DNA of 56,205 nt, the filler included, from Dugesia japonica (Eukaryota), in NCBI GenBank assembly GCA_001938525.1. It is 5 parts of 5 records of this genome, joined end to end, with 100 filler letters (N's around TTAATTAATTAA, not from the genome) between each part and the next. Parts side by side here need not be neighbours in the genome. Positions count along the whole stretch, not along the records: positions 21,681 to 35,670 come from MQRL01487508.1; 4 more parts are not named here. One strand, given 5' to 3'. Positions within the stretch are counted from its first letter, which is position 1, and each line of letters opens with the position of its first letter. The notes below the pieces were generated by a model, which searched no databases, was not told the origin of the DNA, and worked only from the letters and a program-made list of their open reading frames with translations. The position numbers and the translations under genes were made by a program. Positions 6,077 to 35,610 of this stretch are shown here, in pieces.

Positions 6077-7374
6077 TTAGGTGTGTGGATTAATTTTAAA
6101 GGTATTTTCTACAAAGTTTTACAAAAAGAAAAGTCGAGAAAAACAGCTGTATTATAAGAAATGGATACAAATTGTTCATTCTAAATATTGATCATCGCTG
6201 GACACTACTCTCTTTCATCTTTACGGCAAAAAGTAGATTTCACGACGAAAGAAGGAAGCATCTTGTGAGGCTATCCAGGAATCCAACCATTTTTTCGTAT
6301 CCTCATAAGAATGAAAACACTGATCCAAAAGGGCATAGGTCATCGATCTGAAGAGGTGAAAATCCGAAGAAGCAATATCTGGGGAATATGGCGGGTGTGG
6401 TAGTATTTCCCAGTTCAGGTTTTCTAAAGTGTCCTTTACAACTTTCCCGTATGTGGGCCAGGGTTGTCATGCCATAAAATAAAGCTGTCGTGTCTTCCTT
6501 TATAATCTAATGTTTTTACCTGTAACTCTTGACTCAGTTGTTTTTTTTGGTGTTTGTAGACTTTTGATGTGATAGTTTCGTTGGGTTTGAGCAGTTCGTA
6601 ATACACGACCCCAAGCTGATCCCACCAGATAGACAACATTAGTTTGACACCATGGATATTTGGTTTGGCAATCGACTGTGATGGTTCTCCCTGTCTGCAC
6701 CATGATTTTCTGCGCTTCGGGTTGTCAAATCGTACCCATTTTTCGTCACCTGTGAGGATACGATGTTAAACGTTTTTCTTTGATGCCTTTGGAGCAGCAA
6801 TTCAAATATAAATTTTTTCAACGGCTCTGGACTTCAATTTATAGGGTAGCCAATTTCCTTGTTTTTGTATCATTCCAATTGACTTCAGGAGTCTATAACT
6901 TGTGCTTCAACTAACATAATGATTTCGCAAGTTCTTCCTGCATCGCAATTGGGTCTTGATTGACTAAAGCCTCCAATTCTATATCATTCACTTTCGTAGG
7001 TTGTCCCAGACATATATTATTCTAAGTATCAAAATCACTACTTCTAAAGCGGCGATACCAGTATTCGCATGTTAAAATCGATGGGCTATATTTTTCATAG
7101 GCTTCTGACAGCATTTGGTGACTTTCCGCAGCGTTTTATTTCAAATTGAAGCCAAAAAGCAAACATTCCTGCAAATGGCTTTTTGTTGGGACAAATATTG
7201 ACATTTTGTTTGCTAAAAATAAAAATATCTTATGAGTATTTTTTAATGAAAATTATTGATTAGTATAATTCGGTAATTGGAAATCACAAGGGAACACAAA
7301 AATTTTGTCCCATTTCATATACTGCGTATAACATCATCAACTGCATGACCTTTAAAATTAATGCACACACCTAA
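6077..7374 (-). mobile_element. Full-length (about 1.3 kb) mariner, Mos1/mauritiana-like, defective
   Basis: 27-bp TIRs TTAGGTGTGTGGATTAATTTTAAAGGT / ACCTTTAAAATTAATGCACACACCTAA (1 mismatch), flanked by TA on both sides. Confidence 0.95.
6176..7204 (-). pseudogene. Mariner transposase with stops and frameshifts
   Basis: MSIFVPTKSHLQECLLFGFNLK, MLSIWWDQLGVVYYELLKPNETI, HDNPGPH, PPYSPDIASSDFHLFRSM. Confidence 0.95.
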
Positions 7375-13045: not shown

Positions 13046-13145
13046 NNNNNNNNNNNNNNNNNNNNNNNNNNNNNNNNNNNNNNNNNNNNTTAATTAATTA
13101 ANNNNNNNNNNNNNNNNNNNNNNNNNNNNNNNNNNNNNNNNNNNN
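13046..13145. other. Artificial contig linker 44N-TTAATTAATTAA-44N
   Basis: Exactly 100 bp; six-frame stop spacer; identical at four sites. Confidence 0.97.
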
Positions 13146-14061: not shown

Positions 14062-14959
14062 CCCAACCAATTTCAAAATTAATAACCAAAATTAATCATC
14101 GCATATTCTTCCAACAAAAACATTTGTAGGGACACTTGGGGTGTAGGTTGTGTAGAATTTATGTCAACTTGAATCGAAATTATAAATAAATTTTACTAAC
14201 AATTTTTTTACTGGAATATATAATAGCAATATAAAATAATTGAAAACAAAATTAACTGAAATTAATTTTTAACAAATTTTATTTACAAGATAAAATATTT
14301 ACTGTTTTTATTTGATTATTTATCAATTCTCCCAAAATTTATATTCAATTTTTTCTGTAGGATGCCAAGCACGTTTGATTTAAATTCTTCAAATTTCAAT
14401 TTGATTATTTCTTTTATATGTTTTATCGGTGGTTCTCAAGATTTTTTAAATTCAAAATTATTATTCTTATTTTTCTGTCAATAATTATTATTGACCATTC
14501 TTGCCATTTTTTAAATATTTTTTCTATTACTATTATACATATACGCGTGTATATGTATATACATAAACAAGTAAGTAGATTGATCAGCATGACCTCACTA
14601 TTTTGATTGATCAATTTTAAACGATTATGATTAGTCAATTCGGAATGATCTTGAAATTTGATGGACAAAAGTAACAAAAAGATAATATTGTTTAAATATT
14701 CAGTAATTGTTCAGTAATTTAATAAGTGTTGTTAGATATGTGGTAAGGACAATCATTTTTTTAATAATTGTAGCTTATTGCAAAATAACACAAAAATGTT
14801 CAGTGTATTCATGAAGAAAATAATTCAGACGATCTAGCATATAGTAATGACGATATAAAACATGATGAAAGCAGAGATTTCGAAGAGAAAGATATTGGAG
14901 CTTTTACATATGATCAAAACACAAACAGACAAGATCATAATTTAAACGACAGACGCTCC

Positions 14960-15370
14960 ACGGCATACATTTCGTCTGTGGAGTCGTTGAATTAAATGCT
15001 GCAAATGCAGGAAATCGAAATGCTATGATGTTCAAGAAGCCAGATGGTAGATGGTGGAGTTTGATTGAATGTTGTGGAAAGATGATAGAGATGTTATTGG
15101 ATACGGGCGCAGCAGTAACGGTGATGTCAGAAGATAAGTGGAGAATGTGCGGAAATCCGACATATCTCTTAGAGGAGCATTTGGTGCTAAAGCAATAACA
15201 TGTTTACGAGAGTTTAAAGCTTTGGTTAGTTGGAATGGAATGATTAAGAATATCCATATTACGTAGTTAAAGACATATAAATTTGTCGGTGGTATGAATA
15301 TTATTTCAGCTTTTGGATTGAAGCTTTTATAGAGAGTTGCAATGAATTTGATAGATTCGGAAGTCTTAGG
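14960..15370 (+). pseudogene. LTR-retrotransposon aspartic protease remnant
   Basis: EMLLDTGAAVTVMSEDKWRMCGNP..LRGAFG..VGGMNIISAFG. Confidence 0.75.
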
Positions 15371-15949: not shown

Positions 15950-16820
15950 AACCACAATATAAGCATTTCATTTGAATTATGAATTAAACTTGCACTTGAC
16001 AACTAATATGTATGGTACAAATACTTACAATCTAAATTCTTGGAATAGCTTATCCAGAGAAATTCATAAATCTTTATTTCGGTCTTTGTGGAAAAATGGC
16101 AAAATAATACTATCAACCAATTCATTATTTCAGCAATAAAATTATCTCCATTTACAAATAAACTCATTTTTAAAAGCTAAATAAATGAATTTGGATGGAA
16201 TTTGTTTCACAAAGCTCGAACTAATGGACTGTCAACAAGAGCACGACCATGGAATAAAACCACTGAAGAAAGATGTTGTCGAAAATGTCATTTATCTCAT
16301 GAAACATTGTGTCATGTCATACAAAAATGCAATTTAAATCTAGAAATTATTAAACAAAGACATAACAGAGCTTAAAGTTAATAACAAATGAATTGAATAA
16401 CCGTGCATTAATTGTTGTCGTAGATCATATGTGCTCTTTAGTTCCAGAGTCAAAGGAGAGAGTCGATTTGATGATTACCAACATAGAAAAGAAGCAAATT
16501 TTGTTAGTAGACGTTAAATGCCCAATTGATTTAATGCACAATTTTGAGAATATTGATAAAGCAAATCTTGAAAAATATGCCAAATTGAAACTACAAATTC
16601 AAACGATTAAATAAGATTTCAAAGTAGATTTATTTACCTGTATCATAGGATCACTTGGCTCTATACATCATTCAACAGAAAAAATTCTTATAAAAATTGG
16701 TGTGCAGAAATCCCAGATTAATAAGCTTCTAAAATCATGTGTAATCTCAAACATTGCATTCTCAGCAAATATTTGGAAATTTCACAAAACTGGAACTTTT
16801 ATCACGGAAAATATTAATTA
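15950..16820 (+). pseudogene. 3' part of a non-LTR retrotransposon with CCHC finger and restriction-like endonuclease (NeSL/R5/R2 group)
   Basis: KARTNGL..CRKCHLSHETLCHVIQKC..RHN, RVDLMI..LVDVKCP, NLEKY, IIGSLGS, IWKFH. Confidence 0.88.
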
Positions 16821-21086: not shown

Positions 21087-21580
21087 TTAGGTCTAAAAGT
21101 TAATTTTGTGGATTTTCTTTGTTTAAATATTTCATTTTATAAATAATAATTTATCAATTTTTTAAAATAAATTTTAGATAAGTATTATTCAAGCTTTTAA
21201 AAAAATGATTGGTATGATTTGTAAAAGTTTAATTTTATTTTGATTCTCATTTTAGTATTACCATGTATAAACCAACTAAAGAGCACTTGTGGCATTCATT
21301 GTTATTATTATTTAACCTAAAGAAAACAACTGCTGAAAGTTACCGTCTAATTCTGGAAGCATATGCCAATTTGGTTTTATCTCAAGACACATGTGAACGG
21401 TGGTTTAACCGATTCAGGAATGGAGATTTTGACTTGAGTGACAAGGTTCGCCCTGGTCAAGCAAAGAGATTTGAAGATGAAGAATTAGAAGTCATATTAA
21501 CTGATTTAACACACAAACACAACAACAGATAGCTAAGCTATTAAATGTTTCTCAACGTGCCATTTCTAGTCGTCTACATC
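21087..21580 (+). mobile_element. 5' half of a second mauritiana-like mariner, cut by a linker
   Basis: TA + TTAGGT.. TIR; ORF 21263 MYKPTKEHLWHSLLLLFNLKKTTAESYR..TCERWFNRFRNGDFDL. Confidence 0.92.
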
Positions 21581-21680
21581 NNNNNNNNNNNNNNNNNNNN
21601 NNNNNNNNNNNNNNNNNNNNNNNNTTAATTAATTAANNNNNNNNNNNNNNNNNNNNNNNNNNNNNNNNNNNNNNNNNNNN
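21581..21680. other. Artificial contig linker 44N-TTAATTAATTAA-44N
   Basis: Exactly 100 bp, same as the other three. Confidence 0.97.
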
Positions 21681-21724
21681 ATACTACAGAAAAATGGGTA
21701 CTCCCACATTTAGGAAGAGATAAC

Positions 21725-21850
21725 CTGGCGTTAATTAGGAAGAAATTAAGGAAGTATTACAGGAAGATTAAAGGAAGACTTAATTAAGGAAAATTAAAAG
21801 GAAGATTAAAGAAAGACTTAATTAAGGGAAATAAAAGGGAAAAATTAAGA
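21725..21850 (+). repeat. Short purine-rich tandem repeats in the element leader (LTR/5' UTR)
   Basis: GGAAGATTAAAG.AAGACTTAATTAAGG.AAAT repeated twice, plus degenerate copies. Confidence 0.7.
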
Positions 21851-22204
21851 AAGGTGGTTGTGGGAGCTGTAATTACAAGTGTAGAGCAGCATGATATTAA
21901 AATAAGTTTAAAATCAGGAAGAGGAGTGATTGTCTCTTAAGTAAAGACAATTAGAAGTAAATTTTTATTCTAGAAAGTAAAACTACAAAATAGCACAAAA
22001 GCAAACCGAAGCGGATTAAGAAACCAAAAAGCCGGACTCTGACAAAACAGATTGCGACTCGGAAAATAAAAAACCACTTACAAGGTCTAACACATCCGGA
22101 TTATCTACCCCAAATTCAATTCTCAAAGAAACCCAACTTACCCGACCCAGGTCATCAAGGAAGCAAAAGAAATCGTCACTCTATTTGGACCAGGAAGAGA
22201 ACAT

Positions 22205-23700
22205 TTGTTCGCTCAAGAAAAAGAATTCGACAAATCAGCCTCCTTATCCAAAACTAAAACTTTAGAAACCATCAGTTCAAACAGTAGTCCGAATGACAAA
22301 GAAAACCAAACTAACCTAAAAACAATATCCAGTAAAACCCCAGAAGTTAGTAACAGATCAAGTGGAATAAGTTATACATCAGAGGAATCAGAAATCATCG
22401 AACTAATAACTAGTAATCAAGAAAACACCGACTCACTGATAATAAAACCAAGAGACTTAGGAAACGAAACACCCTCAACAATAAATAAAAACCCAAAAAT
22501 AGAATTCAATCTCAAAAAAGACAAAAACATGACCACTAAAACTGAAAACCAACGACCGGAGTGGAAAATAAAATTCGATAGCGAATATTTAAGTGGAATA
22601 CCAGAAAAGTTGGATGAATTTATCCAAAATTACGAAATGTATGCCAAAACCTGTGGCTGGGACGAGGAAGCGAAAAGAAAGCGGTTACCAGTTTACTTAA
22701 CGAGAGTAGCCCAAACCGTGTTTTAGGATCACACCAAGGGCATGGAAGCCATCCCCGAAAAATGGGAAGATATAATAAAGATATTGACGGACAACTTCCA
22801 AAATTTAAAACTGACTGGTCAGGATTTCGAGCAATTTACCAACCGGAAACAACAGCGAGGGGAAACCCCACAAGCTTATATGATGGAACTCAAGAGTCGA
22901 GGCAAACTGGCCTTAGGAGATAAACTAGAAGACATTCAAGTGTTAGCTATATTCTTAAATGAATTACGCGACGAGAACGCAAAGCTAATGGTAAAGTGGA
23001 GTAAGCCAGTGACTCAACAGGACGCCTTGGTCACGTTGCGAATTGTAGCAGATAGACCATCCGAACGAATATTCAAAGTAGAAGGACAGACAGAGGAAAC
23101 TACACCGCGGATATCGGATTTCATACCAAACACACAATCTATGATGAAAACCCTGACCCCAGGGCAGGAACGGAACAGCAGAAATGATAGATCTAACTAC
23201 CCCCGAGGAAATGGCGGAGGATTTAATGCACCTCGTCACAATTGGCAAAATAACCGGAATATACAATGTAATTCCTGTGGAAGGAGGGGACATATAGCCC
23301 GAGATTGTAGGAGTAGAGGCAATAATAATAAAAACAATTGATTTTGTACTTACTGCAAGAAAACCAACCACAATGTAGAAACATGTTTTCTGAAAATCCC
23401 CACTGTCTGTTATAAGTGTAACAGAAGAGGTCATCTGGCAAAAGAATGTCCAAACGGAAACCAAAAAAATTATATCCGAAATCCGAATACAAATCTGGAT
23501 AATCTAATGCAGGAAAATGAGAGATTAAGGCAACGAGTAAACCAAAACANNGGACAAGTCAACTTAGTGCAGCAGAATACTTTTGACGACGTGTACCACA
23601 AAGTCCAACAAGAAAATGATTAGCTCAAGTGGCAAAACCAAGATTTGCAGGTGCAGCAGGATAGACTAGGAAAAAGAAACTGGCTAAACGAACCACACAA
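22205..23700 (+). pseudogene. gag: Gag: capsid domain, three CCHC zinc knuckles and a coiled coil; has stops and a frameshift
   Basis: LDEFIQNYEMYAKTCGWDEE..LPVYL, W..I...L...F, RKQQRGETPQAYMMELK, FLNEL; knuckles CNSCGRRGHIARDC, CTYCKKTNHNVETC, CYKCNRRGHLAKEC. Confidence 0.93.
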
Positions 23701-23974
23701 GAATCAATGTAATATGGTCAGAACACATAGACTTATTTATAATTACCGAAATGGAGGACACTCGGAAATGAATACTGATTACGTCACCAGAATTCGAGTG
23801 GACCAATGAAATCATCCATAAAACAACAAAAACATCAATGACAACCGCCGGAAGAAGACGAGTGATGAATCAGTTACTCCGGTTATATCAGCACCCACAA
23901 GTACATGGAAACGTCAAAGCAAACTGGCAGAAAATAATATCAGATTACATCACTGAGCTCTATAAAGAAACTAA

Positions 23975-26900
23975 GTTAGATGATTACAAATTCGAAATTG
24001 AATATGTATGACATAATAACCCGAAGGTAATTCCGAAACGATTAAAGCTATCACTAAAGGGATTGACAGTACGACACTTGAAAGAAGCCATTAACGAAAT
24101 AAAATGGGCGAATTAGACGGTATCAAATGTATAACGGTAAACCCGTTTCTTGATTTACCACCGTTTACCGATCAACATCAGTGGAATGGAAAGTGGAACA
24201 GGCATAGATTGCAAATAGGTAATATAGGAATCAACATTCTTCCCGATGATAAAAATCTAATTTACTACGGGGCACGACCCCATGAAACAACAGTAATAAA
24301 ATTGATAAATCGTGGTTTGGTATTCAGACCACAGATAGTAATTCAAGAAATAGAAACTGATGAGTTATATCATAATCTCGAAGAAAAATTTTTTAAAGAA
24401 ATCGTTCCCACCACGGCTCAAAACTACTTACGAAAACGATTCGAGAAGGTGAGAGTGATGAACTATCCGGACATGAGACAAAATGAAGCATCACGATTAT
24501 CGCTAGCCCAAATTGATGAGATACTAATAGCCTCCAAGAAACTCCATTATACAATTAGGAGGGAAGTATACCTACAGTTGACTAATCGATTGGTAGAGTT
24601 ATTGGAAGTTATAAAATTGGTCACCGATTTTGAAAGTGATTAGACAGAATGGTTACCAGTACATTATGATTGGGTAATAGCCAACATGGGATTATCAGAT
24701 TACCAAGTATTGTTGTATAACCCAGAAGGAAATAAGAAACTGACACTCGCAGGATTAATGGTGGAAGATCTAGAATTAGCACTGAATCGAGCAGGCCATC
24801 CAAATATAACAGATAAGTTCGTATGTACTTCAAGTGCTATAGTAAATTTTAACGCCAGAAAAAGCCATTTGTACGACTTTGGGGTAAATCGAAATCGTAA
24901 TATTGGATAAACACCCTGGTATCGACTACGACGTATGGGTAACGAAAACTGGAAGATCGGCACTGAAAATCATGGGGAAATGGAATACCTATATAAACAA
25001 GAAGTAGAACCTATCAAAACAAAGATACTTTCCACGGTACTGGGAAAGAAGGACAAACTGACAAAGGAGGAAAGGAAGCAGTTATTGATGACGCGTAACG
25101 ATTTCCTCAAACAAGGATTCGAGAGAAAAGAGGGTAAATGCAAAATGATAAGGATGCGGCAAATGCCGTTAAGGGAAGTAGTAGTGATGCGTAAAGTGGA
25201 GGAAATGATTAACAAAGTACAGGTAGAGAAGGAAATGTTACCCCGAGAAACATATTGATGATATATAACGGGTTGGAAATACCGAAAGAAATTGAGGATC
25301 AATGGCTCATGATTAAACAGTAGTATGCCGAAGAAATATTGGCAACGACCAAAATTCAGGACTATAAACTATATTTGAATATAGTTTAAAATGAACAAGA
25401 AATGACTAAGTACAGCCACCTAAGGCCACAAAGAATAACCATAATGGATCTGGCGGATGCCATTACCGATTAGTGGCAAGAGTACGGATTAAACATGGTA
25501 CCTCTATTCATAAACAGCAAATTGGTCGCGACGGATGACGAGGACAAACACATTCCAATGCCATGCAAAACCCAGAGAAATATGCGAATTAGATGTAGAG
25601 GAGGAGCCGCAGATAGCCCAGTCACCAGAACTTGAGGATCGAATGGAAGAAATAACGGAATTATACGTGTCCGAGGTTCTGACGGGTATTAAGTAACAAG
25701 TAAAAGAAAACCAGAAAAAACAGAATATTGATAACCTACCAATAATTACCACAAAATCAGTTGAATTTCCGGAAGGGACGCCGACAATACGTGATATTCG
25801 GATGAACTACACGAAACCTATAACGGAGGAATCCGCCACGTTTCACGCTATCAAGATCTACTAAGAGTAACACGAGAAACTCGACCAGTAGTGAATATCA
25901 ACGTATATTGGAAAATGATGAATAACCTACGAGATTTGGCAATCTATGGACAACTCAGTTTGTGGGCCAGAGCACAATGGTGGAAAGAGAAAAACCTATA
26001 TGAAGAGGAAGTACAAAATACATCCGCTATATCTGACTATTCTGTCAGAGTGAGATACCTCAGCAAAGAATGAAGTATGAAGAAAGTAGATATGATAACC
26101 CTAGAAGGATTAACTATCCGCCATATCAGAAAACCAATCAAGAAATGGTTATGGCCAAAATCAATCAAGTCATATAAAATGCAGGCGGGAGCAACAATGA
26201 TCATACTAGCCAAAAAAGAAGATCACATCTTCCTGTACGATATTAAACCAGGAGAAATCACGGAAATTAAATTATCCCCGCGGAAAATGACAATAGACTT
26301 TCCGATACCAAAAATGCCGGATACAGATCAGCTTATATTCAACATGATGAGTCTTTATATACAGGAAATATTACCAGTGAAAAACGAAGTGAAAAAAACA
26401 CGTTTGGAGAAAATAAAGTGCAAGTAAACATGGTTAGGAATAATAATTTCAAAACCACGGTCATGGTATCAGACGAGGATGAGGAGGAGGAAGAAATCGT
26501 TGAAGACACAGTCAAACCAAGACTATTACCATTTAAACAAGAATTCGTTACCCCTTTTAGTTCCCCTCAAGCAAAACGTATATCAAAGATAATCTCTGAT
26601 TTCTGGTATTTTCTGGAAAGAATACCTAGGGCACCATTTTGAAAGGCATTAAATTTGTTGATGGATTTGTCGAAATATACCAAAATAGCAAAAGAAGAGC
26701 GCGACAAATGAGAATTAGTGCTCAAGCCGTATATTGGTGCAGTTAAGACAAGGGAGAGGATTTCCAGGTCACTATAGAATATCAGACACCGAGTAAAAAA
26801 CCCAGAAAGGAACCGAAATTGGCTCTAATGCATATACCACATTTCAATAGTACATTAGCTTTGGAATTACAGTAAATTATAGAATCACTGGATATAGCTG

Positions 26901-28285
26901 ACCAACATAAAGGCTATATAATCACCAGCGACCATTTGAGATTCCCTATAAAGCTCGAAGGGAAACAACATTTAATGGACATAGGATTAATACCAGGTAA
27001 AAATATCTTTCTCCAAATACAGAAACCGGAAGACTACGCCCCAGGCCCAGTAAAGTACATGGGAGATGTGCTACAACAATTAGAGGATTTGCACGAGCAA
27101 GAAATCAACAGTGGTAAACTGTTTGAAGAAGTCGACGATAGAACAATGGAGATAAATATCGAGTTATGTGAAGACAGTAAAACATGGAGGAGTCTGGCCC
27201 GGGTAATAATGATAATACTACTGACCCTTGAAAAGAATTTAGAATTATTAAGGGATGACACAGTCATACAACTAATCATGAAATTAAATCAGCTACGAGC
27301 CATTAGCCGTATGCTAGGAGACGTAATGAATGCAATATTATATAAAGTAGTTCGAATGATAACTAATGAAGAAGTCGCCTTAATAATCAGATTTCCGGAT
27401 GAAAGTGGAATTCATTGGCAGATCCAAATGAATGATCAATGGTCCAAATTCCGAAAAAGGATTATAAGATTTATGAATAAACAATGTAATCTTTACGAGG
27501 AGGGGACCGGAACACAACCATTATGACAGGAATACGATATAGTACTCTATTACAATCAGGTAATAGAACCAGACCAAATGAGGTTGCCGGTGAAATATAT
27601 GGGAGTTTGGCCAGGTACTAAATTAAAAATCTACGTAACGGCAAAGGAGGAGGAGAGACGGCGACCACGGGTCTCGGAGGAAAAGTGGAAGCAGGAAGCC
27701 AGAGAAGTAGTGGAATGTTATATAGAAGAGATCCATCTATTAGTACTCGCAAGAGCCAAGCTTCCTAAACAAGAACAAAGTAAACAACGAGTGAAGATGG
27801 TAGCAGCTCTGACCAACACACTAATCAAAAATGAGAATCCAGAAGACAATTTACCAAAATTATTCGAATTGCTAGTGGGTGATAAGTTAATAAAGCCACA
27901 GATCATACGTCGATCCAATATAGTCCTACAACACGATCTGGCAGTAGATCTAAGAAAGCTACGACGATTAATTATGGCCGTCAAGGTATCTCATGTATGG
28001 GTTCCGATTCAGCTTAATAAAACTTTGGTTAAATGGCGGAAAGCGGAGATGGGACAAACGACTCCATTAGCAATCAAATTCAGAATAATCAATCCGGAAG
28101 GAGATAGAATTACGGTTAAGATACCAGTATATAATACGGTAAAGCATCTACGAGATAAATTGCCATTTAAGCCACCATATAAACTCTTGGACGAAAATGG
28201 GGTAGTGGACGAAACCACTTCAATTGGGCTAATGAAGATAGATTTAATCAAATCCAATACTTTATGGATTTTCCCAGAATTATGA
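23975..28285 (+). pseudogene. Accessory region with about 7 divergent ubiquitin-like (beta-grasp) repeats separated by helical spacers
   Basis: Recurrent xDYxhxhxY...hxLxGLThRHh...I...DxxLxxYxhxPxxxhxh pattern, e.g. LPDDKNLIYYGARPHETTVIKL, KEDHIFLYDIKPGEITEIKL, LEGKQHLMDIGLIPGKNIFLQ, LPVKYMGVWPGTKLKIYV. Confidence 0.6.
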
Positions 28286-28848
28286 GGTACCCTTACTCGG
28301 AAAGAAGCAGACCCTTATAAAGCAGCAGATAAAACAAGACCAATAATGGGAGAAACCTTAGGGATGTTAAAAGCATATAAACACCGTACACAACTAGTGG
28401 CTAGACAAATATTAAGACTTACAACAGACCAGTCAGGAAGTACAGAAACCTCCCGAGAAACGAAAGGAACCCCTAAAACAACTCAAGATTGGGAACGTGA
28501 AATATTCGGATCCCCATCAGCAGATGAATTAGCAGAAGATGGGAATGAATTGCAAATCACAAGACATTCACCTCCAACGAGAAAAAGTGGAGAACTACAA
28601 GCATATAGCCAACACGAAGCAAAAAATATGATCCTAGCAAGGTAGATTTAGACGAGGAAGATGCATTAGAAGAACAAACATTATAACCAATATTGAGTAG
28701 GATGGCAAAAGAATTGCCATCATTAGTAATGGATGACTTAATGGATACAAACCACCCTTTAGAAATGGAAAATCCTATGGAGACAGAAGAGGAAGAAGTA
28801 CCACCGAAACCAGTGCACACCAGAGTGGATGCAGAAACGATTACTGAA

Positions 28849-28878
28849 CCTAAAAAAAGAGGAAGGCCAAGAACGAAA
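28849..28878 (+). other. AT-hook/NLS motif in a disordered acidic linker
   Basis: PKKRGRPRTK. Confidence 0.7.
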
Positions 28879-29013
28879 CCTCCAGGAAACCTGGAGGAAG
28901 AGGAAGCATTAAAACAAAAGAGACGAGCAACATCAGTAAATCAACAGACGAAGCGAGAATCCAGGAGATGATGACAGACTCATACTGAAGTGGTAATACG
29001 GCAATTATAGCTA

Positions 29014-29388
29014 ATGCTTTATCCAGAGCTAAAGATTTGGATTGGTAAATTTCAACTATCAGATAGTCTCAGACCACTAGCAAAAGAAATAGAAGCAGCC
29101 ATTAAGAAATTTCACGCTACTAAAGGTACTAGTCATGGCACGAGAGACAACTTGGAAGGAGTAATGGATGATTTTTTACAGGATCAGTCAACGAAAGGAA
29201 GAATAGTAGTATCTATAGCCCATTTGATTAATCAAGCACATCTATCAATGGCCAGAAGCAAGCCGTCAAAAAACTTCATTCTAAAGCAGAACAAAATAGT
29301 GCCGTTGATAAAGCATCATGGGGGATGGAAAAAGTTTATTGAGGTCATATGCCATAAGCCTCAACCATCTCATGAAAATGCAACTTGA
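29014..29388 (+). CDS. Bcl-2-family-like domain (part of the decayed polyprotein)
   Basis: BH3-like LSDSLRPLAKEIE, BH1-like LEGVMDDFLQDQSTKGRIVVSIAH, BH2-like LIKHHGGWKKFIE, with family-like spacing. Confidence 0.72.
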   Translation: MLYPELKIWIGKFQLSDSLRPLAKEIEAAIKKFHATKGTSHGTRDNLEGVMDDFLQDQSTKGRIVVSIAHLINQAHLSMARSKPSKNFILKQNKIVPLIKHHGGWKKFIEVICHKPQPSHENAT

Positions 29389-29466
29389 GTAATCAGGATT
29401 GTAAGAGATCAGTTAAATGAGATTGAGAATGGATGGACACGTGGGCCTCGCCGAAATTCATGGTAG

Positions 29467-31480
29467 GCATTAACAACTACAATACTCTTATTATTCTTAT
29501 TGATGGGCAGAAGTGAAGCCATATTAGCATATGGCTGCGATATGATGCAAGTTGGGAAGGAAGTATTCTCATTAGTAGATACTGAAGAATGTCCGTACGC
29601 GAACCCAGAAAAAATTTCACTCCGAAATAATTCCGTGTACCACCTGTATCAGGAGTCGGATTATTATAAGGCCCAAGTACGCGAATGTATAGTAACAATA
29701 AAGACGTTCATATTCCATTGTGGTTACCACAGTTACACCTCAATAATTGATCCAGGAATGGTAAAACCTCGTACATTTAACGGGACAACAATGTGACGAA
29801 GGATTCACTACAGGTAAAATTACCATCAAACATGGGACTCAAGTTGTCGCCAAAAGGGACATGTAATCGACCAACCAATAGAAGCAGCAGGAAGCATATC
29901 CTAACATATAGACAACTGTGAATATGGTACCTACACTATACGAAGAAAAGTACGGCAGTATGCGGTGGCAATCGAAACTTATACAGTGGAGCTCAAGGAA
30001 TACGAAGCATTCTTTGATGCACAAGATCTGAAAATGAAAGGAAGATCGTATTGTAAAGCAGCGGACGGATCATGTAATACAGGTACATCAACTCTAACAT
30101 ACAAAATAGACCACGAGGACTGCAAGCTAGCTCATCTAAAAGAGGCACTGTCCAATGAATACCAAGGACAGTGGGCTATAGCACCTATTGACCAATCTCC
30201 AAAAAAAGGTAATCTAAAGGATAGAGGAAACGATAAGATAAGGCCCAAAATCATACGATTATCAATGGCACGCAACTCCCACGATGCTAATGTCCTCAGA
30301 ACAGGATGAGACCATCCGCCTAATTAAACGAAATTCTATGTCAAAATGTGGACAAATAGTGTATAAAACAAACTATAAAGGAATATTCGTATCAGAACAT
30401 CGAATGAAAACCCCACAGGCCGCAGTAATGTCACAAGATATCAAATTACATCTATATGCCAATAATAAAATGGACAACTTATTCCACCGGATGCAAAATA
30501 ACATCGGACGAATGTACCACGATCTCATACAAAATGAGTGCAGGTTAAATAAGAAAATACTGAAGACAAAGTTAGCAATGGCGGTTACGAATCCAGATAG
30601 TGTCACCCCACTAATTCCCTTGAAAAAAGGACAATTTGGTCTAGTACTAGGAGAAGTAATGTACCTATATTACTGTAAGGCCGTAGATGCAGAGTTTTCG
30701 TCCAATTCAAAACATTGCTATAATGAAATAGAAATTATCCATAACAATGAAAAACGTTATGTACAACCAATTACTCGAATAATATCACCACTGGGTTATA
30801 GGCCGAATATCATAAACTGCTCCAATGTATTTGGACCACAATACGTAATGACAGACGTGCCATGGATAGGATTTCCACAACGTATGGCAGTTGGAGTTGA
30901 GCCAAGAAAATTCTCAAAGTTATGATTTAATGGCGGTATGCAGTTTTCTCCGATTGATGTAAATAAAGGCGGAATTTACAGCAGGGAAGATCTAGAGAAA
31001 TCTAGGGAATATATGCTGTTTCCAGTCTGAAGAATGCAAATTCTATCAAATATAGTACAATTAACCTGTGGAACAAACATAGACGGGCGCGTAAATTATG
31101 ATGCATTATTGTCACCCGATCATTTCCAGAAAGCCACGGAAAACGTCATGCGGAAAATGTGGGGCTGATTTATACTATTTGGTCAGGCAATGGCAGGATT
31201 GCTGGGAGTGATTTTGATAATTTCAGGAGCACGAGTAGTGATTACCCAATTGTTTGCATGTTTCGACATATACAAAAGAGAAAAGAAAGTGAATTAGAAA
31301 ATGCTAACCGGAATATTCCCATTCTTAGCCAAAACCATGGTGCTTAATAGCCACTCAAAAGAGATTGACAGGGTAAAACGATATATCCGTAAGCTCGGGC
31401 AAAAAAGAGGATCGGACAAGAAGGTTATAATGCAACTTCGATTGTTGTGTGAAGAAGAAAATATTGTATTTTAGCCAACT
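29467..31480 (+). pseudogene. env: Envelope glycoprotein, chuvirus G-like (class III fusogen type), with frameshifts and stops
   Basis: Signal ALTTTILLLFLLMGRSEA, then ILAYGC..FSL..EEC, LYQESDY..VRECIVTIKTFIFHCGYHSY, LYANNKMD, MYHDLIQNECRL, GEVMYLYYCKAV, CYNEI, YVQPITRII, GGIYS; C-terminal TM near 31160-31270. Confidence 0.85.
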
Positions 31481-31974
31481 CAAAAACAAAGGTTTAAGTA
31501 CAAAAGTGAAAGTAGCAGCAGCAGCGATGATGATAGAAAAGAGAGCAGTGGAACGCCACATTTACCCAGTTATAAAACCGCCATGGAATACGATGCGAAG
31601 TTTAAAAGACAACAATATGAAAGAATCAGTAAAATGCAACGACTAAGAAATGCATAAAAATTCGTAGGAAATGAAATTACACCAGCACCAGCACAAATGT
31701 ACTACAACGCCTATCCACAACATGGTTGGCAACCCATGAATCAACAGCCACAACAGGTATGGGCACCAGGTCTCATGTACAACACTCCTTATATGAGTCC
31801 ATCACAAGCTCCTAATATGGCATTATTAACAAAAAATAATCTAACCACCATTGACAGAAGAACTACGGACCAAAATTTGCGTTCTCCGAATAACCAGATC
31901 ACTGAAAACGATAAATTAGAAACCCAAATCGTATGTATGATGATTTATCAGAAAGCGAAACTACTACAAAAAAG

Positions 31975-32215
31975 GATAAAAATTGACAGAAGATTGGTAA
32001 TAGCAATTATCGATACGGCAGCAAGTACGACTTTAGTTCACAAAAGAATATTAGAAGATTATCGACAATTCCGAATAATCATTACTAAAGGAGTTATCAT
32101 CACGGCTTCTGAAGAAAAGATATCACCTGTCGGGGAAGTAATATGTGCAATAGAAAGTGACGGAATCCGTCTATGGCATAAAGTGCCTACTGGGATTAGA
32201 TCTCTTACCACGTCT
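31975..32215 (+). pseudogene. Aspartic protease domain 1 (DTA variant)
   Basis: IKIDRRLVIAIIDTAASTTLV..IITASEEKISPVGEV..CLLGLDLL (last motif after a frameshift). Confidence 0.8.
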
Positions 32216-32559
32216 ATGCTCAGAGGGAATACTAGATCTGAGGAAACTAACAATACGAGAAATTCACGATCAGGAATACACACCACAAGGTTACTAAAAG
32301 ACCAGGATAATAATTGCACGGAAACGACCAACAAAATGGAATCAAACAACCCCTAACCAACGGCCTCAACTCTCGTCATGCAGGGGTGAACAATATAATT
32401 CGAATCAAGGTCGTCGAAAAACCACCAATACCTCCATTATGATAAGAGACTATTGAATACGGTTTCAGGAACGGGAACCAAGGTGGAAAGAGAAAAAACC
32501 ACAGAATACAAATTATAACCCTTTGGATATGGTGTACGCAGGTCTCGGCGGTGGATCTG

Positions 32560-32840
32560 TGTTAACAATTATAGTTAAAATCAACGGTAGACCTACAACT
32601 GCTTTATTGGATACAGGAGCAACAATCTCGTTGCTATCAATAGAAGAAATCCCGATAACAGAATATAAAACATACTACTCACCAATACCACAGCAGATGT
32701 GGCAAACCGGAGTAGACTTAAAATTTTTGGAGAACTAACATGTGAAGTAGAATATTTGGATAACAAAATTAAGCACAACATGATAATAGTAGAGATGGCT
32801 GGACAGTGCATTTTGGCACGGACATTCTCCCAATTCTGAT
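32560..32840 (+). pseudogene. Aspartic protease domain 2 (canonical DTG)
   Basis: VKINGRPTTALLDTGATISLL..VANRSRLKIFGEL..CI(L)GTDIL with frameshifts. Confidence 0.88.
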
Positions 32841-32939
32841 GAAAAATGGCATATTGAACTTCTCAACGTTACGGTTACAATCTCTGGAGGGATATACTCA
32901 CGTTAAAGATCACGAAGTATTTACAACAGAGGAAATATT

Positions 32940-33800
32940 GGTATGTGTACAGCTACAATGCATACCATTCCGTTAACAGACGAAACCCCGGTTAAACAAA
33001 AACAATATGCAATGACTGTGGAAAAGAAGGAATTTGCAAATAAGGAAACAGCTAATTTAGTGAAAATCGGTGTAATAGAACCCAGCTGCTTGCCATGGCA
33101 GTCCCCAGTGGTATTAGTGGATAAGAAAGATGGGACACAACGATTCTGCATTGATTACCGAAGATTAAATGCACAAACTAAGAAGGACATATATACGTTA
33201 CCAGACATCAATGAATTGCTACAATCATTGTGTAATGCCAAAATATTCACTACATTGGACCTGCGAAGTGGGTATTGGCAGGTACAGATTAAACCAGAAG
33301 ATAGGGAGAAAACAGCTTTTTCTACAGGCAAAGATTTATATCAGTTCATCCGCATGCCATTTGGACTCACTAATGCACCTGCCTCATTCCAGAGGATGAT
33401 GAATTATGTAACACATGGTATCTCGCAATGTATGGCATACATTGACGACTTGCTGATATATTCACTAACGTTTGAAGGACATCTCAATGATTTACATAGT
33501 GTGTTCATTCGATTACGAAAATGGAATTTGAAAGTGTAACTTACCAAATGTGAAGAATAAAGTAACGTATTTTGGTCACTTAATATCCGATAAAGGAAAG
33601 GAGCCAGATCCGAGAAACACCGAGAAAATCAGAAATCTAGCACCTCCTAATTGTGTGCTCAAAATACAAAGGTTTTTAGCCTCGCAAATTACAACCGCAA
33701 ATTTATCAAATACTTCGCAAAGATTGCAAAACATATACAAGAATTGGTCAAACAGGATACCGCATGTATATGGGGACCGGAGCAACAACAAGCATTTGAA
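32940..33800 (+). pseudogene. pol: Reverse transcriptase, Ty3/Gypsy type
   Basis: HTIPL, PWQSPVVLVDKKDGTQRFCIDYRRLN, LDLRSGYWQ, KTAF, RMPFGLTNAPASFQRMM, YIDD. Confidence 0.97.
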
Positions 33801-33819
33801 ACGTTGCGGGACAAATTAT

Positions 33820-34230
33820 TAACTGCACCAATTCTGGTGCATCCAGATTACAAAAAGCCATTTATATTAGCCACTGACGCTAGTGGATATGCGATGGGTG
33901 CTGTATTAAGTCAACTGAATGAACAAGGTAGAGAAAGGGTAATAGTATATTTTAGCATATTTTAGCAAGAAAAAGAGCAGAGTTAAATTACAGCACTACA
34001 GAGCGAGAAATAATGGCTATTATTAAAGCCACTAAACATTTTCGATCACTCATACATGGTCACAAAGGTGTTAATCTATACGGATCACTTACCAATCACT
34101 TTTATGGCTCAGAAACCATTACGATGGAATAGAATGGCAAAATGGCAATTAGCAATGCAGGATTATTGCCCTCTATTAAATTTTAAAACGGGTAAAGCCA
34201 ACATAAATGCCGATTGTCTGTCGAGAATCG
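33820..34230 (+). pseudogene. pol: RNase H
   Basis: APILVHPD..PFILATDASGYAMGAVLSQ, NYSTTEREIMAI, IYTDHLPI, GKANINADCLSR. Confidence 0.95.
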
Positions 34231-34529
34231 GTGGACCAGAAGCTACAGAAAGTACCCCGGAAGATACGGAAACGTTTACAATACGTGAATTATTAGAGAA
34301 AAAAGTGGGGATGGTATACTTCATTTCAGCCGAGGATCAAAATTTTGATGGGCTGAAACAAGCATAGGCTGACGATGAGAAAATCAAGATCATCCCGAAA
34401 TATATTGAAAGTTACAATTTAGAGAAGTTAGACTGCGAAGCCAAAATGAAAGAGCACGTAAAGAAAAACGGCGGTAGTTATGCATTTATCAAAGGATGGT
34501 TGACTGCTCAGGACGGAGAAAATACTGTA

Positions 34530-35610
34530 TTAGTCATTCTTAAAGCAAGACGGGACAAATTACTCGAACAATATCACAATGGAGTACTAGGAGGACACAT
34601 GTCCCATAAGAAAACCGAGTCAAATTTAAGACAGAAATACTACTGACCATACATGACGGAATCAGTAAAGGAATGGATCGCTAAATGTCTGGTATGTGCT
34701 GCCAGAAGAGGAACAGGCAAACGAGTAAAAGCATTATTAAAACCAATTGCCGTCCCCGCAGCACCTATGGAAATAATCGCCATGGACGTAGTTGGACCGC
34801 TATCACCAACGCTGAGCGGGAATATATATATATATATACTAACAATCATGGATTACTTGTCAAAATTTCCAGAGGCATTCACTATGAAAAATCAAAAGGC
34901 AACCACAATAGCAGATATTCTAGTACGAAAATTTTTCAGCAGATATGGCACACTCATGAAAGTATTGAGCTATCAAGGAAAAAACTTTATGAGCAACATA
35001 CTGGCACAGATATCAAGCTTTCTCTGGATACATCAATTATGGACATCGCCTTATCATCCTCAAACAGACGGACTAACGGAACGATTTAATAAAACATTGA
35101 TCAATATGCTGTCTAGTTATGCACAGAAAGAACAGAATAATTGGGANNNNNNNNNNCAGCTATGTCTATTTGCATATCGAATAAATGTGCACCCAGCTAC
35201 AAAATACACTCCATTCGGTCTTATGTATGGCAGAAAGTGTAACATGCCAATTGATTTAGAGTTTTAGCCACCCATAACTCAATACCAAGACGAAACGGAT
35301 TTCGCTGAAAATTTGAAAGAAACTAAGCAGAAAATATGGAAACAGGCCAAGGAGAATGTAGGATTTTACCTAGAAAGCTATAAGGATTTGCACGATAAAA
35401 CTGCAATGCAACATTCATTTGAAAATGAAGACATGGTATTGATCAATTTTTTGACACTCATAGATATTTGTGTTGGCACTAGTTTGAAATAAAAAAGGCC
35501 ATGACAAAGGCCCTACGAAGTAATTGAGGTAACCGAAACCAATCTCAAAGTTCGGAAAAAAGGAAATCTCTTAGTGAAACCTAAAATATACCACACCAAC
35601 TTATGTAAAA
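34530..35610 (+). pseudogene. pol: Integrase (HHCC, DDE core with second D mutated to Y, GPY module)
   Basis: YHNGVLGGH..CLVC, MDVVGPL, DYLSKF, SYQGKNF, PYHPQTDGLTERFN, GPYEVIEV. Confidence 0.96.

Follow-up and report, generated by a model that had tools for sequence, protein, structure and literature searches.

Homologs of Bcl-2 are typical of large DNA viruses, and the locus described here raises the question of whether a planarian retroelement carries one as well and, if it does, what such a domain could do for the element or its host cell. The window, a 56,205-nt stretch of Dugesia japonica DNA (assembly GCA_001938525.1) joined from parts of five records, contains four identical 100-nt spacers (13046-13145, 21581-21680, 35671-35770, and 44926-45025), each made of 44 N, six-frame stops, and another 44 N. 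Since spacers bound the piece that holds the element (MQRL01487508.1), the DNA that flanks it in the window is not taken as its genomic neighborhood. That DNA has debris of its own, recognized by eye: mariner transposase-like fragments at 21233-21580 (+) and 6221-6765 (-), a retropepsin motif (14941-15198, +), a non-LTR endonuclease-like fragment (16366-16614, +), a gypsy RT fragment (47294-47506, +), and a 243-aa frame (108-839, -) that has no Pfam match and recalls Polinton/adintovirus-like capsid proteins. Within the element, all of whose features discussed below lie on the plus strand, the sequence at issue is an open frame of 124 codons at 29014-29388, in which the initial annotation had recognized a retroelement-encoded Bcl-2-like domain from three peptides; the frame carries all three.

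The piece (21681-35670) is the internal coding part of a decayed Ty3/gypsy GAG-ENV-POL retroelement, purine-rich and of ~38% GC versus 20-30% around it, with many stops and frameshifts throughout and no LTR. Its gag region (22529-23450) encodes three CCHC zinc knuckles (at 23267, 23345, and 23408 by motif scan; zf-CCHC, E 2.1e-9) and gives a Retrotrans_gag match that falls below the cut-off (E 0.014). Downstream, ~4 kb of coding remnants (24095-28057) persist as long stop-poor frames with no Pfam match better than E 0.04; in Burro, a planarian group of giant gypsy-like LTR retroelements, the corresponding region reportedly includes MATH or midasin-like parts. A candidate ubiquitin-like domain (28058-28282), picked out by eye, occupies a position that fits the Ubi2/SUMO-like motif of Burro; neither Pfam nor PDB sequence searches returned a ubiquitin match there. 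Beyond the Bcl-2-like domain lie remnants of a gB/chuvirus-type envelope glycoprotein (29521-31222), with two matches to PF24664, Monjiviricetes_fusion (E 1.4e-16 and 4e-35), 47% identity to P0002, and, by hydropathy, a C-terminal membrane span near 31166-31222. The pol region comprises a retropepsin protease with a DTG motif (32457-32735; RVP, E 2.9e-7), reverse transcriptase and RNase H (32907-34364; RVT_1, E 1.9e-27; RT_RNaseH_2, E 1.2e-22), and integrase (34647-35264; rve, E 2.1e-9), and the whole coding span, from gag via env through pol, comes to ~4527 codons. A class III fusogen env located between gag and pol, together with the pol order PR-RT-RH-IN, is the arrangement of gB-type errantiviruses (Metaviridae), and the retroelement setting that had been assigned to the domain is confirmed by Pfam matches across the element. 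MATH, BIR, RING, ankyrin, and dUTPase domains gave no Pfam match in the scanned segments of this decayed copy, and the piece may omit accessory ORFs. The retropepsin is the second of two protease-like motifs in tandem and the only one with a Pfam match; the first, a candidate found by motif scan that carries DTA (31958-32236) and matches no Pfam protease, may be a retropepsin that was duplicated or is defunct.

In this copy the domain is enclosed by stops on both sides, and a free-standing Bcl-2-like gene was considered and rejected, since in contigs of the family the domain forms part of the env frame. The element is one copy of a large multi-copy family: 26,349 contigs of DNA run X1 align to it at 80% likeness or more, mostly at less than 95%, and cover 30 of 30 bins. 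The stop that closes the frame (29386-29388) is replaced by a non-stop codon in 97.6% of X1 depth (55 contigs), and the next one (29464-29466) in 99.6% (51 contigs), depth here being summed over contigs and giving no copy number. At each of these stops more than 97% of the contig depth of the family is thus open, and the frame of the domain continues through the env signal into the ectodomain. Upstream, an acidic/basic linker (28636-29013) was traced by read-through in the same frame as the domain, after a frame change near 28640 in this copy; it contains a KKRGRPR sequence (RGRP; 28850-28880), which we take to be an AT-hook-like motif, and four stops, of which the one at 28684-28686 is a non-stop codon in 99.7% of X1 depth (19 contigs) and the other three lie at 28969-28974 and 29008-29010. 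The domain has no membrane anchor of its own. Forty-seven residues past its BH2 Trp, in the same frame and immediately upstream of where the PF24664 match begins, comes a hydrophobic signal-peptide-like stretch (29467-29520) that follows a basic patch and has the hydropathy peak of the 387-aa read-through (Kyte-Doolittle ~2); its cleavage site was placed by eye.

How much of a Bcl-2 protein is preserved? Translation places a BH3-like segment, LRPLAKEIE, at 29068-29094, a BH1-like segment, VMDDFLQDQSTKGRIVV, at 29161-29208, and a BH2-like segment, LIKHHGGWKKFIE, at 29305-29343, so that the BH3-BH1-BH2 order is retained. For comparison we used 21 Bcl-2 proteins fetched by motif, 18 of them from metagenome contigs (out of 62 matches, the remainder being non-Bcl-2 or near-duplicates) and 3 viral; in one of the viral motif searches, 2 of 115 matches were Bcl-2. 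Identity to these references is 12-24%. The distance from the BH1 Gly to the BH2 Trp is 43 residues versus 48-51 in 20 of the 21 references, the last having been mis-parsed by the pattern, and the alignment has gaps of ~12 residues in the α3 region and ~7 in α5-α6. Among 27 consensus columns (agreement in at least 15 of the 21 references), 12 are kept, including D57, G62, R63, I64, V65, I99, G103, G104, and W105, and 15 are lost. The losses include the Asn and Trp of the NWGR signature, which reads TKGR here, just as the initial annotation had noted, with the Gly, Arg, Ile, and Val in place; as the references were selected by their BH1 motif, the constancy of NWGR across them follows from the selection itself. 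Some viral Bcl-2 members also deviate from NWGR. In BH2, I99 and the GGW triplet (G103, G104, and W105) are kept and the first Trp is replaced by Leu. Death-promoting BH3 motifs contain a Gly-Asp that the BH3-like LRPLAKEI lacks; the segment is similar to the cnidarian-like references, which are of the LRRLADQI/LVRKLANEI type. At the N-terminus, a helix is predicted by low-confidence models in the place of BH4/α1, local alignments stop short of BH4, and this copy has its stop at 29008-29010. Viral Bcl-2 proteins (EBV BHRF1, ASFV A179L, and grouper iridovirus GIV66) and cellular Bcl-2/Bcl-xL (PF00452) thus share with this domain the ordered BH3/BH1/BH2-like motifs, an all-helical prediction, and a hydrophobic stretch downstream, whereas the planarian version is part of a retroelement polyprotein, has TKGR for NWGR, has lost the first BH2 Trp, bears two deletions, and possesses no clear BH4.

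We lean, with modest conviction, toward a Burro-type gypsy element, now broken, whose env frame includes a degenerate Bcl-2-like domain. The domain is likely an old capture from an animal Bcl-2 gene and, in intact relatives, is likely to be released as a membrane-anchored damper of host-cell death. We posit that intact relatives make one polyprotein of ~4500 codons, in which the element protease would cut upstream of the Bcl-2-like domain, freeing its N-terminus, and signal peptidase would free the C-terminus at the far end of the hydrophobic stretch. The env signal sequence would stay attached as a tail anchor and tether the domain to the ER membrane on its cytosolic side, in the topology of Bcl-2 tail anchors; there, the retained BH1 Gly-Arg could bind BH3 helices, and the death of particle-producing cells would be delayed.

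This last step depends on a binding groove that the two deletions and the lost residues could abolish. A Bcl-2 descendant that no longer binds BH3 could instead serve as a scaffold acting against innate immune or stress signaling, as several poxvirus Bcl-2-fold proteins do, or as an env leader that aids processing or budding. The pattern of decay is compatible with such a role, groove residues and α3 being lost while the BH2 GGW and core hydrophobic residues are kept, and so is the company that the domain keeps, fused as it is to the env signal region and near a candidate ubiquitin-like domain (seen by eye here and published for Burro). Against it stand the survival of the Gly-Arg pair, which in Bcl-2 BH1 engages BH3 ligands, and the presence of another apoptosis inhibitor in Burro1, considered below. 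We regard a scaffold or leader as an unlikely, though credible, description of the domain.

A more radical alternative is that there is no Bcl-2 ancestry at all and that GRIV and GGW occur by coincidence in an all-helical linker that precedes env. The Pfam Bcl-2 model, which had been suggested as a check, offers little against this: PF00452 is the sole family matched by the domain, at E 0.07 and 14.1 bits over residues 23-78 (13.4 bits for the longer read-through), under the cut-off of 31.4 bits, and because unrelated families reach E 0.04-0.2 on other element segments in the same 19-segment scan, this match alone is at noise level. Tests against Bcl-2 proteins themselves are more telling. HHalign pairs 92 columns of the 21-protein profile with the domain, spanning BH3 to BH2, at a probability of 68.9% and E 4.5e-5, and an HMM built from the same alignment scores the domain at 13.6 bits (P 2.5e-6), a score that none of 5000 shuffled sequences reaches (maximum, 10.5) and that the reversed sequence does not approach (2.1). 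When 3195 six-frame tiles of the window are scored, the top five overlap the domain, and the best unrelated tile has 3.9 bits; in single pairwise BLASTP comparisons, two viral Bcl-2 proteins match at E 2e-5 and 0.001. The three peptides and their likeness to BH3, BH1, and BH2 are therefore present, ordered, and above chance when judged against the Bcl-2 profile alone. Over all families and tiles, however, a P of 2.5e-6 is not rare and could arise by chance, and independent support is therefore needed.

Such support did not come from predicted structures. The initial annotation had named the absence of a Bcl-2 fold in structure prediction as grounds for abandoning the idea, and neither of two AlphaFold models shows one: helix limits fit α2, 4, 5, and 8, and TM to Bcl-2 is ~0.3 or less. 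Both models are of low confidence, however, and too poor to exclude the fold. The single-sequence model is all-helical (pLDDT 54, pTM 0.39); Foldseek found nothing for it at E 0.001, with 20 of the best 50 matches being Bcl-2-family entries, all at E >2, and VIA-align had no Bcl-2 entry among the 50 matches listed. The model built on the Bcl-2 alignment (pLDDT 67.5, pTM 0.42) reaches TM ≤0.30 and Z ≤2.7 against Bcl-2 structures, and because that input alignment makes the 16 Bcl-2 rows among 19 in its fold search circular, we give them no weight. A search of viral models with the predicted structure gave no significant match. Sequence searches for relatives of the domain were equally unproductive: in protein searches none of 74 longer and three near-length candidates scored, no RNA data set was listed as containing the sequence, a PDB sequence search returned one unrelated match (E 1.7), and related elements were found neither in viral contigs, where the one pattern match was not confirmed, nor among 148 candidates in metagenome contigs. 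A phmmer search of 1.84 billion representatives gave two matches, both to long repeat proteins with scores summed over repeats, and both were rejected.

The independent support that statistics lacked is supplied by the published layout of Burro. Arkhipova and Yushenova (PMC6431247) credit Grohme et al. 2018 with noticing a BCL2-like motif in Burro elements. It follows a ubiquitin/SUMO-like motif and immediately precedes an in-frame env related to the fusion proteins of mononegaviruses; the polyproteins measure 4873 and 5140 aa, and in Schmidtea mediterranea their Gag bears three CCHC knuckles. The Dugesia domain thus sits at the BCL2 site described for related elements (PMC6431247), and its three motifs are correctly ordered and almost correctly spaced, which together make a chance resemblance improbable, despite the noise-level Pfam match, the breadth of the search, and the lack of a fold match in structure searches. 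Bcl-2 ancestry, as initially proposed, is accordingly supported twice, by the profile tests and by the Burro layout, and we conclude from the sequence that the Bcl-2-like domain is real and sits where it should, though the match is weak. That the domain is instead pro-apoptotic or membrane-permeabilizing in the manner of Bax, Bak, or Bok and helps particles out of the cell is very improbable: BH1-BH3 are common to both classes, and our data place the domain in no subfamily, but its BH3-like LRPLAKEI, without Gly-Asp, is nearer to the LRRLADQI/LVRKLANEI type.

The preferred reading, a decayed Bcl-2-derived module of a Burro-type element, can be compared with known elements in some detail. With Burro1/GYPSM1 and Burro2-4, as presented in the available text of PMC6431247, the element shares a three-CCHC Gag, a BCL2-like motif immediately upstream of an in-frame mononegavirus-like env, the PR-RT-RH-IN order, and multi-copy status, and its ~4527 codons are similar in length to the polyproteins of 4873 and 5140 aa. 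It differs, in a comparison with the published description only, in being a 14-kb internal piece in which no LTRs or accessory ORFs were seen, where Burro elements with their LTRs exceed 30 kb, and in having two protease-like motifs. Troyka elements (PMC12440569) were considered as well and set aside, as this piece lacks LTR ends. The BCL2-like-before-env arrangement is thus already in print for Burro, a precedent that the initial annotation does not mention, and the idea is not new. A second point of reference is the report by Chary and Hayashi (PMC13524379), which, in the part available, describes GAG-ENV-POL errantiviruses with gB-type env from nematodes, bryozoans, and flatworms. Its Platyhelminthes C1a errantiviruses (Smed_errantivirus_1-6) have the same gene order, with published spans of 14.5-18 kb, and share with the Dugesia env the motifs YQESD, FHCG.HS..SII.PG, IETYTVELKEYEA.FD, and a TNYKG-type sequence, the closest by eye being numbers 5 and 6. 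The env described here, in a copy that is not intact, is identical to none of the six S. mediterranea sequences when compared by eye with the partial ectodomain sequences of eLife supplement 2, and neither "bcl" nor "apopto" occurs in the main text of PMC13524379 as available. The family may lack a name of its own.

Could the element protect, or bias the survival of, the cells that carry it, as the initial annotation supposed? For this copy, protection is impossible: it is broken throughout, a fossil that makes no Bcl-2-like protein. The family as a whole hardly appears in three RNA runs of unspecified tissue and strain that bear the same species label: X10, X11, and X14 contain 2, 10, and 2 family reads out of 10.5, 13.6, and 11.6 million, none of them 95% alike or more. 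Repression of Burro RNAs by PIWI proteins has been reported in the available text of PMC8532177. A survival role has been described for a different module, the BIR/RING module of Burro1 (B-IAP), which protects planarian stem cells according to a 2026 Dev Cell study as quoted in the accessible part of PMC13465017. By that second-hand account, B-IAP and the Bcl-2-like domain are alike in being apoptosis regulators carried by planarian retroelements, but B-IAP is a BIR/RING caspase inhibitor reported to have been tested and to be expressed in stem cells, whereas the domain described here is Bcl-2-like and belongs to a family nearly absent from RNA. The reported role in stem-cell survival would thus belong to B-IAP and not to the BCL2-like module; our literature searches listed no study that examines what a retroelement Bcl-2 domain does.

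The only report of a retroelement Bcl-2 that we found is the motif-level note on planarian Burro, which this copy corroborates with explicit statistics, and the use of an env signal peptide as a tail anchor is a topology that this copy suggests. It is doubtful that a planarian endogenous retrovirus family other than the Burro families with names of their own makes a minimal Bcl-2 that works and is anchored by the env signal peptide. If it did, every envelope made would also place one death inhibitor at the ER, a reverse-transcribing element would possess a functional Bcl-2, and the Burro1 IAP would be joined by a second module against cell death. If the Bcl-2 module works, then, given the reported Burro1 IAP, these elements would interfere with cell death in its mitochondrial arm as well as in its caspase arm.
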